Position numbers: made by a program
Source: Escherichia coli
GTDB lineage: Bacteria > Pseudomonadota > Gammaproteobacteria > Enterobacterales > Enterobacteriaceae
Assembly: GCF_003018255.1 (NCBI RefSeq)
Contig: NZ_CP027440.1
Reading direction: 5' to 3' (one strand)
Length of the DNA: 64,000 nt
Shown here: positions 2,992 to 14,900 of the stretch, in pieces
How the letters are laid out: each line of letters begins with the position of its first letter
Numbering within the stretch: the stretch's first letter is position 1

Positions 2992-5900
2992 GCGGCCCCT
3001 CTCCACATGGAGAGGGTTTGGGTGAGGGAAAAGCCTCACCCCAGCCCTCTCGGGTAAAAACATTGATGAAGGTTAATACTATGAAAGCATTACATTTTGG
3101 CGCAGGTAATATCGGTCGTGGCTTTATCGGTAAACTGCTGGCAGACGCGGGTATCCAACTGACGTTTGCCGATGTCAATCAGGTGGTACTTGATGCCCTG
3201 AATGCCCGTCATAGCTATCAGGTTCATGTGGTCGGTGAAACCGAGCAGGCAGATACCGTTTCCGGCGTCAATGCCGTCAGCAGCATTGGTGATGATGTCG
3301 TTGATCTGATTGCTCAGGTTGATTTAGTCACTACCGCCGTTGGCCCGGTTGTGCTGGAACGTATTGCTCCGGCAATCGCCAAAGGGCTGGTGAAACGTAA
3401 AGAACAAGGTAATGAATCCCCGCTGAACATCATCGCTTGTGAAAACATGGTCCGCGGCACCACACAGCTGAAAGGCCATGTGATGAACGCCCTGCCAGAA
3501 GATGCCAAAGCGTGGGTAGAAGAACACGTTGGCTTTGTCGATTCCGCCGTTGACCGCATCGTGCCGCCTTCGGCTTCTGCAACCAACGATCCGCTGGAAG
3601 TGACGGTAGAAACATTCAGCGAATGGATTGTCGATAAAACGCAGTTCAAAGGCGCGCTGCCAAACATCCCTGGCATGGAATTAACCGACAATCTGATGGC
3701 ATTTGTCGAACGTAAACTCTTCACCCTGAATACAGGTCATGCTATAACCGCGTACCTCGGAAAACTGGCCGGTCATCAGACCATTCGTGATGCGATTCTC
3801 GACGAGAAAATCCGCGCGGTGGTAAAAGGTGCGATGGAAGAAAGTGGTGCAGTATTGATCAAGCGCTACGGCTTTGACGCAGACAAACATGCGGCGTACA
3901 TCCGGAAAATCCTCGGTCGTTTCGAGAACCCGTACCTGAAAGATGATGTAGAGCGCGTAGGCCGTCAGCCGCTGCGTAAACTGAGTGCTGGCGACCGTCT
4001 AATCAAGCCACTGCTCGGAACGCTGGAATATGGTCTGCCACATAAAAACCTGATTGAAGGTATTGCCGCTGCAATGCACTTCCGCAGTGAAGATGATCCG
4101 CAGGCTCAGGAACTGGCAGCACTGATCGCTGACAAAGGTCCGCAGGCGGCGCTGGCACAGATTTCCGGTCTTGATGCCAACAGCGAGGTTGTATCCGAGG
4201 CGGTAACCGCTTATAAAGCAATGCAATAATGGTGGACCAGGCGCAGGACACCCTGCGCCCGAATAACAGATTGTCAGATATGCAGGCAACAATGGAACAA
4301 ACCCAGGCCTTTGAAAACCGTGTGCTTGAGCGTCTGAATGCTGGCAAAACCGTGCGAAGCTTTCTGATCACCGCCGTCGAGCTTTTGACCGAGGCGGTAA
4401 ATCTTCTGGTGCTTCAGGTATTCCGCAAAGACGATTACGCGGTGAAGTATGCTGTAGAACCGTTACTCGACGGCGACGGTCCGCTGGGCGATCTTTCTGT
4501 GCGTTTAAAACTCATTTACGGGTTGGGCGTCATTAACCGCCAGGAATACGAAGATGCGGAACTGCTGATGGCATTGCGTGAAGAGCTAAATCACGACGGC
4601 AACGAGTACGCGTTTACCGACGACGAAATCCTTGGACCCTTTGGTGAACTGCATTGCGTGGCGGCGTTACCACCGCCGCCACAGTTTGAACCTGCAGACT
4701 CCAGTTTGTATGCAATGCAAATTCAGCGCTATCAACAGGCTGTGCGATCAACAATGGTCCTTTCACTGACAGAGCTGATTTCCAAAATCAGCTTAAAAAA
4801 AGCCTTTCAAAAGTAAGTACTTTCGCTTACTTCTCCTCTACCTGTTTCGGACGATAAAGCTGACGATAATACTCCAGACGTTGTAGATATAACGGCACGC
4901 TTTCATCAGGTATTCCGGACGGAATCGCGTTACGGGGAGGTAGTTTTTTCAGATACTCCCGGAACGCCTGGCTCGATGCCATGAAATCTACGGCTTTATC
5001 GATAAGAAGCGGAACGTTTTCACCTAATTTGCCCATGATGATATCTCCGTATTACCCCGCGCCGGGAATGCGCGGCCGCCAATTTTAGTTTAGATCCCGG
5101 TATAAATGACATTAAGGAAAACGTGCTCAATCCTCAATAATCACCTGCTTCTGTTGACTATCTTTTTTCTTTAAATTTCTTAATTAATCAATAAATTGCG
5201 TAGTTTTTAAGCATGTTAATGTTTACGTTATAGAACTATTGCAATGTCATCAGTTGTGAACAAAGCACCTGGTCGCGCATACTAGGGGCTATAAATTTAT
5301 CTTTATCAGAAGCCATCACATGAAAGAAGTCGAAAAAAACGAAATCAAACGTCTCAGCGATCGTCTGGACGCCATCCGCCACCAGCAGGCCGATCTGTCG
5401 CTGGTTGAAGCCGCAGACAAATATGCCGAACTGGAAAAAGAGAAAGCCACTCTGGAAGCAGAAATTGCTCGCCTGCGCGAAGTTCACAGCCAGAAACTCA
5501 GTAAGGAAGCACAAAAGCTGATGAAGATGCCATTCCAGCGCGCGATTACCAAAAAAGAGCAGGCTGATATGGGCAAGCTGAAGAAAAGTGTTCGCGGACT
5601 GGTCGTTGTGCACCCAATGACCGCGCTGGGCCGCGAAATGGGCCTGCAAGAGATGACAGGGTTCTCAAAGACTGCGTTTTAAGTTCCTTTCTCGTCGCTG
5701 TAATCACAGCCTCTCACCATTTACTCGCTCCTGCTGGCACATGCAGGAGCCTGTTTCAGAGATCGAATATTTATAACGTTCTTAACATTATATATTCAAT
5801 CTCCTCTATTCTTTTTAGCGCACATGCCAGGCTAAATTCTGAAAATCAGGTACAAGTTAAAGAACGATGTATCAATATTAACAATGAATTGCCGCATATC

Positions 5901-11900: not shown

Positions 11901-14900
11901 CGCAGTTGAAGCAAAGCGTGCAGGAAACGAAGCAATACACCGATCAGCGCATGGTTGAGATGGATAACAAACTGTCCAAAACCGAAAGCAAGTTGAGCGG
12001 TGGTATCGCTTCTGCAATGGCGATGACCGGTCTGCCGCAGGCTTACACGCCAGGTGCCAGCATGGCCTCTATTGGTGGCGGTACTTACAACGGTGAATCG
12101 GCTGTTGCTTTAGGTGTGTCGATGGTGAGCGCCAATGGTCGTTGGGTCTACAAATTACAAGGTAGTACCAATAGCCAGGGTGAATACTCCGCCGCGCTCG
12201 GTGCCGGTATTCAGTGGTAATCATCCATTAACGAATGGGTAAACGCCACATTGCCTGATGCGCTACGCTTATCAGGCCTACGGGGTGATTCAGCACTACC
12301 CTGTAGGCCGGATAAGGCGTTCACGCCGCATCCGGCAAGATAAGGCGCACCAGATCAACAATCTGAGGGCAATTCTCTGATGGGAATTGCCCTTTTCTTC
12401 ATTACCTCTCTCCCAGAATTGGCCCTACCAATTCTTCATTGATCTGACCTCTGGTTCACAATTCCCCAATTAAAACTCACATCACCGTTGCCAATACATA
12501 ACATCTAGTTAACTATTCATTGTCATTATCCCTACACAACACAATTGGCAGTGCCACTTTTACACAACGTGTGACAAGGAGATGAGCAACAGACTCATTA
12601 CACGGCGTGTGTGGACTGCAGGAGACCTGCAATGAATCTCTGGCAACAAAACTACGATCCCGCCGGGAATATCTGGCTTTCCAGCCTGATAGCATCGCTT
12701 CCCATCCTGTTTTTCTTTTTTGCGCTGATTAAGCTCAAACTGAAAGGATACGTCGCCGCCTCATGGACGGTGGCAATCGCCCTTGCCGTGGCTTTGCTGT
12801 TCTATAAAATGCCGGTCGCTAACGCGCTGGCCTCGGTGATTTATGGCTTCTTCTACGGTTTGTGGCCCATCGCGTGGATCATTATTGCGGCAGTGTTCGT
12901 CTATAAGATCTCGGTGAAAACCGGGCAGTTTGACATCATCCGCTCGTCTATTCTTTCGATAACCCCTGACCAGCGCCTGCAAATGCTGATCGTCGGTTTC
13001 TGTTTCGGCGCTTTCCTTGAAGGAGCCGCAGGCTTTGGCGCTCCGGTAGCAATTACCGCCGCATTGCTGGTCGGTCTGGGCTTTAAACCACTCTACGCCG
13101 CCGGACTGTGCCTGATTGTTAACACCGCGCCAGTGGCATTTGGTGCGATGGGTATTCCGATTCTGGTCGCCGGGCAGGTAACAGGCATCGACAGCTTTGA
13201 GATTGGTCAGATGGTGGGGCGTCAGTTGCCGTTTATGACCATTATCGTGCTGTTCTGGATCATGGCGATTATGGACGGTTGGCGCGGAATCAAAGAAACG
13301 TGGCCTGCGGTCGTGGTGGCAGGTGGTTCGTTTGCCATTGCTCAATACCTCAGCTCTAACTTCATTGGGCCGGAACTGCCAGACATTATCTCTTCGCTGG
13401 TATCACTGCTCTGCCTGACGCTGTTCCTCAAACGCTGGCAACCAGTGCGCGTATTCCGTTTCGGTGACTTGGGGGCGTCACAGGTTGATATGACGCTGGC
13501 TCACACCGGTTACACCGCAGGTCAGGTGCTTCGCGCCTGGACACCGTTCCTGTTCCTGACCGCCACCGTAACGCTGTGGAGTATCCCGCCGTTTAAAGCC
13601 CTGTTCGCTTCAGGCGGTGCGCTGTATGAGTGGGTGATCAACATTCCGGTGCCGTACCTCGATAAACTGGTTGCCCGTATGCCGCCAGTGGTCAGCGAAG
13701 CGACAGCGTATGCCGCCGTGTTTAAGTTTGACTGGTTCTCTGCCACCGGTACCGCCATTCTTTTTGCTGCCCTGCTCTCAATTGTCTGGCTGAAGATGAA
13801 ACCATCTGACGCTATCAGCACCTTCGGCAGCACGCTGAAAGAACTGGCTCTGCCTATCTACTCCATCGGTATGGTGCTGGCGTTCGCCTTTATCTCGAAC
13901 TATTCCGGACTATCATCAACGCTGGCGCTGGCACTGGCGCACACCGGCCATGCATTCACCTTCTTCTCGCCGTTCCTCGGCTGGCTTGGTGTCTTCCTGA
14001 CCGGATCGGATACCTCATCTAACGCCCTGTTCGCCGCCCTGCAAGCCACTGCAGCACAACAAATTGGCGTTTCTGACCTGTTGTTGGTTGCCGCCAACAC
14101 CACCGGTGGTGTCACCGGTAAGATGATCTCTCCGCAATCTATCGCTATCGCCTGTGCGGCGGTAGGCCTGGTGGGCAAAGAGTCTGATTTGTTCCGCTTT
14201 ACTGTCAAACACAGCCTGATCTTCACCTGTATGGTGGGCGTGATCACCACGCTTCAGGCTTATGTCTTAACGTGGATGATTCCTTAATGATTGTTTTACC
14301 CAGACGCCTGTCAGACGAGGTTGCCGATCGTGTGCGGGCGCTGATTGATGAAAAAAACCTGGAAGCGGGCATGAAGTTGCCCGCTGAACGTCAACTGGCG
14401 ATGCAACTCGGCGTGTCGAGAAATTCACTGCGCGAGGCGCTGGCGAAACTGGTCAGTGAAGGTGTGCTGCTCAGTCGACGTGGCGGCGGGACGTTTATTC
14501 GCTGGCGTCATGATACATGGTCGGAGCAAAACATCGTCCAGCCGCTGAAAACGCTGATGGCCGATGATCCGGATTACAGTTTCGATATTCTGGAAGCCCG
14601 CTACGCCATTGAAGCCAGCACCGCGTGGCATGCGGCAATGCGCGCCACACCAGGCGAAAAAGAGAAAATTCAGCTTTGCTTTGAAGCAACGCTAAGTGAA
14701 GACCCGGATCTCGCCTCACAAGCGGACGTTCGTTTTCATCTGGCGATTGCCGAAGCCTCACATAACATCGTGCTGCTGCAAACCATGCGCGGTTTCTTCG
14801 ATGTCCTGCAATCCTCTGTGAAGCATAGCCGCCAGCGGATGTATCTGGTACCCCCGGTTTTTTCACAGCTGACCGAACAACATCAGGCAGTCATTGACGC

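Follow-up and report, generated by a model that had tools for sequence, protein, structure and literature searches.

Introduction

In Escherichia, Salmonella and Shigella, the mtl and lld operons flank the genes of trimeric autotransporter adhesins (TAAs) of the SadA type, which are part of a sadB-sadA operon that was proposed in Salmonella from the 44-bp gap between the two genes (Grin et al. 2014, PMC3953254). Salmonella SadB is a lipoprotein that forms a trimer and enhances the surface display and integrity of its cognate TAA (PMC3953254). Homologs of SadB are exclusive to the Enterobacterales, where they adjoin TAAs, according to a 2026 preprint (bioRxiv 10.64898/2026.01.22.700529). Here we analyze a lipoprotein gene, the TAA gene that follows it and the AT-rich leader that precedes both, in a stretch of 64,000 nucleotides from contig NZ_CP027440.1 of Escherichia coli (assembly GCF_003018255.1). 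This stretch is referred to as the window, and all positions are those of the window. We consider it highly probable that the locus is an E. coli operon of the sadBA type and that its adhesin gene is an upaG-type allele, with an AT-rich leader that is a presumed target of the repressor H-NS.

Functions in adhesion, aggregation and biofilm formation have been published for the E. coli adhesins UpaG and EhaG. The two are reportedly positional orthologs, UpaG from uropathogenic E. coli CFT073 (1778 amino acids, aa) and EhaG from enterohemorrhagic E. coli O157:H7 (1588 aa), and their description is said to go back to Valle 2008 and Totsika 2012.

Results and Discussion

The lipoprotein and the adhesin

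The open reading frame (ORF) of the lipoprotein begins with MNLKKTLLSVLIIVPLCLLAGC followed by D, which comprises a signal peptide (MNLKKTLLSVLIIVPLCLLAG-C22-D23) and a lipobox, L19-A-G-C22, with Asp23 at the +2 position. An aspartate at +2 is the classical inner membrane retention signal of lipoproteins, and by this rule the protein would be located in the inner membrane. The Cys-Asp pair is invariant in all homologs aligned, which include E. coli alleles and sequences from Pseudocitrobacter, Citrobacter and Enterobacter. When the protein was compared with all PDB chains using phmmer, there was a single strong match, 4C47 ('inner membrane lipoprotein'; E 7e-69; residues 23-227 against residues 3-207 of the chain), which is the SadB structure of Grin et al. 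(PMC3953254). The BLASTP alignment with 4C47 is ungapped over 205 aa, the full mature chain, with 53% identity and 75% positives, so the protein has the coiled-coil half as well as the beta domain. The original prediction, made from the sequence alone, had suggested a homology search against SadB as a check, and this check is positive. RefSeq names the identical protein 'DUF3251 domain-containing protein', and newer records for close alleles read 'SadB/YajI family lipoprotein'.

The downstream gene was predicted to encode a trimeric autotransporter, and its Pfam domains agree with this: ESPR (4e-16, residues 1-48), YadA_head (2e-56, 14 stretches), YadA_stalk (2e-129, 14 stretches) and YadA_anchor (6e-19, residues 1690-1750). 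The closest solved structures are the SadA fragments 2YO0 (E ~1e-138 to 2e-140), 2YO3 (E ~1e-90 to 6e-92), 2YNZ and 2YO2, and the C-terminal 450 aa are ~90% identical to the SadA fragments. Relative to the proteins that RefSeq names UpaG (1778 aa) and EhaG (1588 aa), which occupy the same slot, the adhesin is 80% and 72% identical overall. The last 100 aa (1651-1750), including the anchor, are 100% identical to both, and the head and stalk are the most variable part, being mosaic and 42-83% identical in 150-aa windows.

The tandem repeats in the stalk (Table 1) encode four near-identical modules of 78 aa, and a second, looser 300-bp repeat lies inside the same gene at 9776-10359. Across the alleles examined the adhesin ranges from 1447 to 1778 aa, in part because of the near-identical 234-bp repeats. 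Both stalk repeats are likely sources of length variation through slippage or recombination.

Position in the chromosome and the insertion/deletion unit

Positions 5000-12700 of the window are 100% identical to E. coli strain JNE112863 (NZ_AP045072.1), in which the annotated order is mtlA-mtlD-mtlR-yibT-yibL, DUF3251 domain-containing protein, YadA-like family protein, lldP-lldR-lldD. The gene pair thus occupies the slot between yibL, on the mtl side, and lldP. The order mtlADR-yibT-yibL-pair-lldPRD is kept in every fetched locus long enough to include the flanking genes. The same arrangement in the mtl-lld slot, with the lipoprotein gene directly 5' of a SadA-type TAA gene in the same orientation, also occurs in other E. 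coli, Escherichia sp., Pseudocitrobacter, Citrobacter and Enterobacter. The search for further loci returned 11 contig loci, with no Salmonella among them. The start of lldP is GTG 12611 in the mechanical ORF call and ATG 12632 (MNLWQQ...) in RefSeq, which is a difference in start-codon calling only.

In K-12 MG1655 the yibL-lldP interval is only 371 bp. Its match to the window ends at 5683 and restarts at 12278, so that the leader, the lipoprotein gene and the adhesin gene are present or absent as a single piece. This agrees with Grin et al. (PMC3953254), who reported that both genes fall within the K-12 deletion, with the mtl and lld operons unaffected. REP-like elements occur in the window at 12288-12336, 2809-2856 and 2944-2991. 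The K-12 DNA immediately 3' of the deletion joint is ~84% identical to the two copies upstream of mtlD, and the right-hand boundary of the unit thus abuts a REP element.

By megablast, the conserved C-terminal 1.4 kb of the adhesin gene is found at a coverage of at least 80% in 4149 of 5426 complete E. coli genomes, and the lipoprotein-adhesin junction of the window allele in 1938. The difference could be read as EhaG-type loci that have no lipoprotein gene. This reading was rejected, since an O157:H7 locus that was inspected carries the gene, which megablast misses because the allele is too divergent. Some E. coli strains have a disrupted or replaced locus. In 24AR0376 (NZ_CP195347.1, 8001-16121) the first 122 nt of the leader are followed by IS1, fimbrial usher and chaperone genes and an S6 peptidase gene; APEC 102026 has an IS5/ISKpn26 insertion inside the region matched by the query, and SCU-172 an IS1A insertion in the leader/lipoprotein region. 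Contigs with a near-identical E. coli sadB-like gene and TAA gene are filed under metagenome-assembled genomes named Oscillospiraceae, Collinsella sp. and Bacillota bacterium, and are most likely mis-binned Escherichia.

The leader and its candidate promoter

The leader starts directly after the yibL stop codon and is 558 bp long. The AT-rich region had been placed at 5700-6240, a trivial shift from its true start at 5683. Over 5700-6240 the GC content is 0.346 against a window mean of 0.495, and only 5% of 541-bp windows are equally low or lower, most of which fall in the waa lipopolysaccharide (LPS) core cluster. That cluster (waa/rfa, with O-antigen ligase and glycosyltransferase genes in the annotation of the identical RefSeq genome) forms a second large block of low GC content (<0.40) at 30561-37222, and is an ordinary, well-known compositional island. 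The leader contains 28.7 A/T tracts of at least 6 nt per kb, 2.6 times the 11 per kb of the window, and TpA steps are 1.66 times as frequent; the A/T run quoted in the original prediction, TTAATTATTTAAATTTTTC, lies at 5917-5935. The corresponding leaders of other E. coli, Escherichia sp. and Pseudocitrobacter loci are 543-558 bp long with a GC content of 0.29-0.36. Between E. coli alleles the leader DNA is 43-96% identical, compared with 94-96% for the flanking genes. In the alignment that shows the short island at 5836-5846 (Table 1) to be conserved, the remainder of the leader is 43-67% identical.

Positions 5200-7100 were scanned for promoter-like and terminator-like sites. Only two promoter-like sites were found on the + strand, both within the leader, and the top-scoring one is the predicted sigma-70 promoter of Table 1. 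It would place the transcription start near 6057 and give a 5' untranslated region (UTR) of ~184 nt. This site coincides with the largest conserved island of the leader, ~6017-6065, which reads ATTTGACAT.GATT.A.A....TCATTA(A/G)AATCCGCGCGATTAAT and is shared by five divergent E. coli alleles, Escherichia sp. E1V33, Pseudocitrobacter vendiensis and the loci of the RefSeq-named UpaG and EhaG. The leaders of Citrobacter and Enterobacter are too divergent to be aligned with the E. coli island. Because the best sigma-70-like site and the main conserved island coincide, this is likely the promoter of the operon, a prediction that draws on motif and alignment.

H-NS and other regulatory inputs

Low GC content, A/T tracts and TpA steps make up the composition that H-NS prefers, and the leader is of this kind. 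Two papers, each in a passage that cites Totsika 2012, report repression at an orthologous locus: UpaG is placed among the H-NS-repressed autotransporter genes (PMC5012682), and deletion of hns is stated to derepress upaG (PMC12525524). Through these citing passages, repression by H-NS and its relief are reported for both upaG and ehaG. The original prediction had called the AT-rich stretch typical of surface-protein loci that H-NS silences. Its compositional part holds for this leader and repression is on record for upaG in the passages cited; binding of H-NS to the present allele would follow by analogy.

The composition of the leader could alternatively reflect the foreign or mosaic origin of the islet, with expression governed mainly by other regulators at the conserved promoter, for example FNR or Fur as sensors of oxygen or iron, and silencing by H-NS not being the primary role of the leader. 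Divergence of the leader between alleles everywhere except around the promoter would fit this, as would the lack of a good match to the high-affinity H-NS motif (see below). A dyad resembling FNR/CRP sites, TTGAC-ACCG-ATCAT, was also read by eye in the promoter spacer at 6031-6044, where it is partly conserved. The Salmonella gene STM3690 (sadB) is listed as Fnr-affected, and its expression in a fur mutant under anaerobic conditions is 4.2-fold lower (PMC3212961). In that mutant, however, hns is 3.1-fold up (PMC3212961), so that the drop in STM3690 could be mediated by H-NS, and the Salmonella data fit H-NS repression and hint at further inputs. The dyad lies between the -35 and -10 elements, which is not an activating position, and serves as a lead only. 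Given the published derepression of upaG and ehaG in hns mutants, in the passages already cited, and a tract-dense composition of the kind H-NS favors, we regard an explanation of the leader apart from H-NS as distinctly unlikely; it is in any case compatible with H-NS repression, the two not being mutually exclusive.

Transcription as an operon

Between the end of the lipoprotein stop codon, at 6924, and the adhesin ATG, at 6968, lie exactly the 43 bp that had been predicted. The eight E. coli alleles compared (that of the window and seven others) all share this length, as do Escherichia sp. E1V33, Pseudocitrobacter vendiensis and Citrobacter braakii; the gap is shorter in Enterobacter wuhouensis (41 bp) and longer in Citrobacter youngae (47 bp). 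All of these loci have the mtlR...lldP synteny and the Cys-Asp lipobox. In the scan described above there was neither a terminator-like nor a + strand promoter-like site in the gap, no + strand terminator-like site anywhere in 5200-7100, and no + strand sigma-70-like site in 6051-7100. The gap RNA has no stable fold (z +0.9 relative to shuffles). Downstream of the adhesin gene is a strong intrinsic terminator (minimum free energy, MFE, -23.5 kcal/mol; z -4.7), which none of 200 shuffles equaled. Upstream, the hairpin that follows yibL is kept in most E. coli alleles and has a weak U-run; it probably ends yibL and so sets that gene apart from the operon. The conserved gap free of terminator, promoter and fold, the strong hairpin after the adhesin gene and the joint loss in K-12 support a two-gene operon, and we infer that the two genes are co-transcribed.

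Five E. coli alleles whose lipoprotein genes are only 70-90% identical in DNA sequence are 90-100% invariant over 6897-7100, a stretch made up of the final ~30 nt of the lipoprotein gene, the spacer and the ESPR-coding 5' end of the adhesin gene. The spacer differs at 1 nt in Pseudocitrobacter vendiensis and at 8 of 43 positions in the EhaG allele. Fold and promoter searches give no cause for this conservation, and the stretch may be a recombination junction or reflect a constraint on translation initiation.

The two genes could instead be mere neighbors. The adhesin gene would then have its own promoter, either in the gap or within the 3' end of the upstream gene, and the lipoprotein would have an unrelated periplasmic role, as for its paralog YajI. 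The stretch 6897-7100, where conservation is highest in the 5' half of the locus, might conceal a regulatory element, and truncated UpaG assembles in K-12, which has no lipoprotein gene. The similarity of lipoprotein alleles, moreover, does not track that of the adhesin heads (see below). Against independence stand the lack of a sigma-70-like site from 6051 to 7100, a gap whose length is held at 41-47 bp across genera with no terminator or stable hairpin, and the loss of both genes together in K-12. SadB homologs have, furthermore, been reported solely beside TAAs in the Enterobacterales (bioRxiv 10.64898/2026.01.22.700529), and SadB has an experimental effect on SadA display (PMC3953254). Independence of the two genes is accordingly judged very improbable.

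Least credible of all is a separate, unannotated element in the leader (a gene for a small protein or small RNA, or an invertible or phase-variable switch), which the unusual length of the leader, a 55-aa minus-strand ORF at 5938-6105 and the second conserved island, TCTGAAAAT at 5838-5846, might suggest, but against which stand the absence of any Rfam family in 5200-7100 (best, U4 snRNA, E 0.54, far under the gathering score), a predicted 5' UTR that folds no more stably than its shuffles (z +0.14) and the absence of tandem repeats in the leader by Tandem Repeats Finder. The minus-strand ORF was rejected as a gene, its region not being conserved between alleles, and a Dam/OxyR-type phase switch through the GATC at 6039-6042 in the promoter spacer was rejected since the GATC is absent from other alleles. 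An attenuator, a riboswitch and a processing hairpin were dropped, the folds of both spacer and 5' UTR being no better than shuffles.

Allelic diversity of the lipoprotein

The window lipoprotein gene was compared with five E. coli loci (L003, L004, L005, L020 and L021). Among the alleles the protein is 66-91% identical, synonymous divergence (dS) is 0.35-1.8 and the ratio of nonsynonymous to synonymous divergence (dN/dS) is 0.11-0.19; for the flanking yibL and lldP, dS is 0.14-0.29 and dN/dS no more than 0.016. The gene is under purifying selection in E. coli. Given the difference in dS, the lipoprotein alleles are much older than the alleles of yibL and lldP, and they are mosaic.

The adhesin C-terminus is 96-100% identical among the five alleles first compared, and the similarity of lipoprotein alleles does not follow that of the adhesin heads. 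In this small sample, the pattern fits a lipoprotein that acts on conserved C-terminal or general features of the adhesin. The polymorphism could, alternatively, represent allele-specific co-adaptation with variable passenger segments, not mere hitch-hiking with a recombining locus. The promoter island, with its GC-rich discriminator and FNR/CRP-like dyad, could likewise set the inducing signal, namely oxygen or iron through FNR, or through Fur and H-NS, which the Salmonella STM3690 microarray data would fit. These readings, of an island that encodes the natural inducing signal of the operon and of a polymorphism that is co-adaptive, are speculations we consider unlikely.

Table 1. Features of the sadBA-type locus in the window.
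Feature	Coordinates	Strand	Evidence
Insertion/deletion unit (leader, lipoprotein gene and adhesin gene), absent from K-12	5684..12277	+	K-12 MG1655 alignment; PMC3953254
AT-rich leader/regulatory region, presumed H-NS target	5683..6240	+	GC content 0.351 (window 0.495)
GC-rich hairpin, probable yibL terminator	5727..5751	+	8-bp stem CUCCUGC.../...GCAGGAG; MFE -19.7 kcal/mol, z -2.4
Short conserved island TTCTGAAAAT; core TCTGAAAAT (5838-5846) invariant in five E. coli alleles	5836..5846		allele alignment
Predicted sigma-70 promoter: -35 TTGACA (6021-6026), 18-nt spacer, -10 TAAAAT (6045-6050), then GC-rich CCGCGCG	6021..6050	+	scan, 11 of 12 matches
Shine-Dalgarno sequence AAGGA	6227..6231	+	direct sequence reading; 9 nt 5' of the lipoprotein ATG
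SadB ortholog, 227 aa, predicted inner membrane lipoprotein with N-terminal coiled coil and C-terminal beta domain	6241..6924	+	ORF; PDB 4C47 match
43-bp spacer with weak ribosome-binding sequences AAGGAA (6947-6952) and GAGAG (6955-6959)	6925..6967	+	sequence; promoter/terminator scan; fold
TAA of the UpaG/EhaG/SadA type, 1750 aa	6968..12220	+	Pfam; SadA structures; RefSeq-named UpaG/EhaG
Tandem repeats in the adhesin stalk, 234 bp (78 aa), 3.9 copies, 97% matches	8579..9498	+	Tandem Repeats Finder; visible in translation
Intrinsic terminator of the operon, 5' of the lldP promoter region	12365..12394	+	scan: 13-pair stem and T-run; MFE fold 12 pairs

Proposed function of the locus

Taken together, these features suggest the following model. 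A promoter in the AT-rich leader, likeliest the site at 6021-6050, would give a single transcript running through both genes to the hairpin downstream of the adhesin gene. The lipoprotein would be exported, lipidated on Cys22 and held in the inner membrane by the Asp at +2, where, by homology to SadB, it may form a periplasm-facing trimer with a coiled coil and three beta domains. Three adhesin chains would pass the inner membrane by means of their extended signal peptide. While the adhesin is exported through its own C-terminal 12-stranded barrel and the Bam complex, the lipoprotein may aid its trimerization, register and display, improving display without being strictly required. The adhesin itself would act in aggregation, biofilm formation and binding to extracellular matrix. 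In laboratory conditions the operon would be near-silent, the published repressor being H-NS acting on the AT-rich leader. The helper function in this model is carried over from Salmonella SadB, and the repression from upaG and ehaG.

Several points weigh against this model, or restrict it. The Pfam-A scan of the lipoprotein found no family and NCBIfam gave only sub-threshold matches, so that the family assignment is based on the PDB match and the RefSeq naming; one sub-threshold NCBIfam match (E 0.005) is to PRK11530, presumably the YajI model. The silence of both libraries is a gap in their coverage and not evidence against homology. Loss of SadB lowers the surface signal and protease resistance of SadA and does not abolish its export (PMC3953254). 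Truncated UpaG constructs were assembled in AD202, a K-12 strain, in work that makes no mention of SadB (PMC5670179), and, since K-12 does not have the gene, the lipoprotein is not essential for adhesin export. Co-transcription and the transcription start are predictions from sequence. The leader was also compared with the published high-affinity H-NS nucleation motif, TCGATAAATT: there was one match with at most two mismatches (1.4 expected) and 20 with at most three (9.6 +/- 3.1 in shuffles), the latter only a mild enrichment. Occupancy of the leader by H-NS is suggested mainly by analogy with upaG and ehaG.

All elements named in the original prediction were found at the positions it gave, and its interpretation is supported. 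Earlier publications already cover the gene pair and its location, the lipoprotein's helper role, the deletion in K-12 and repression by H-NS. The locus is an ordinary, already explained one that carries little weight as a discovery; the conserved promoter candidate and the quantified allelic diversity are new and modest. The analysis gives the correct annotation of the locus in this strain, an upaG-type allele with a sadB-like helper, for genes that RefSeq often labels just 'DUF3251' and 'YadA-like'. It also provides a concrete promoter candidate for an operon whose native expression conditions were called unknown by Grin et al. (PMC3953254). Where UpaG or EhaG has been expressed without the upstream gene, display may be underestimated.

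Comparison with known systems

The defining features of the SadB-SadA arrangement that can be recognized from a genome are all present in the window, and the functional ones are known for the orthologs. The arrangement had been likened to SadB-SadA from the outset. Gene order, lipoprotein then TAA, and the mtl-lld slot are indeed the same as in STM3690-STM3691 of Salmonella enterica, and the gap is 43 bp compared with 44 bp (PMC3953254). The lipoprotein aligns with SadB from end to end at 53% identity and has the same Cys-Asp signal. The adhesin is ~90% identical to the SadA fragments in its C-terminal stalk and differs in having a longer, mosaic passenger (1750 aa for the whole adhesin). The helper function is established for the Salmonella pair only (PMC3953254).

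The UpaG and EhaG loci share the layout of the window locus, with the same slot, an upstream lipoprotein gene, a 43-bp gap and a conserved promoter-like site ~220 nt 5' of the lipoprotein ATG. The window adhesin is nevertheless a distinct allele, as its global identities of 80% and 72% indicate, and the lipoprotein is 88% identical to the one linked to UpaG and 66% identical to the one linked to EhaG.

YajI, the E. coli paralog of SadB, is a lipoprotein with the same C-terminal beta-domain fold (nuclear magnetic resonance structure 2JWY; PMC3953254), and RefSeq groups the two as 'SadB/YajI family lipoprotein'. It is, however, only ~14% identical to SadB, and its gene lies between yajC-secDF and nrdR and forms no operon with an autotransporter (PMC3953254); its neighbor is tsx, with which it forms no operon. 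The window lipoprotein is clearly of the SadB type rather than YajI. Acinetobacter sp. Tol 5 likewise has a small envelope protein, TpgA, encoded beside a TAA, AtaA, whose display it improves. TpgA combines BamE-like with OmpA-like peptidoglycan-binding domains, binds the barrel region of the TAA and occurs widely in Gamma- and Betaproteobacteria; SadB is unrelated to it in sequence and fold (bioRxiv 10.64898/2026.01.22.700529).

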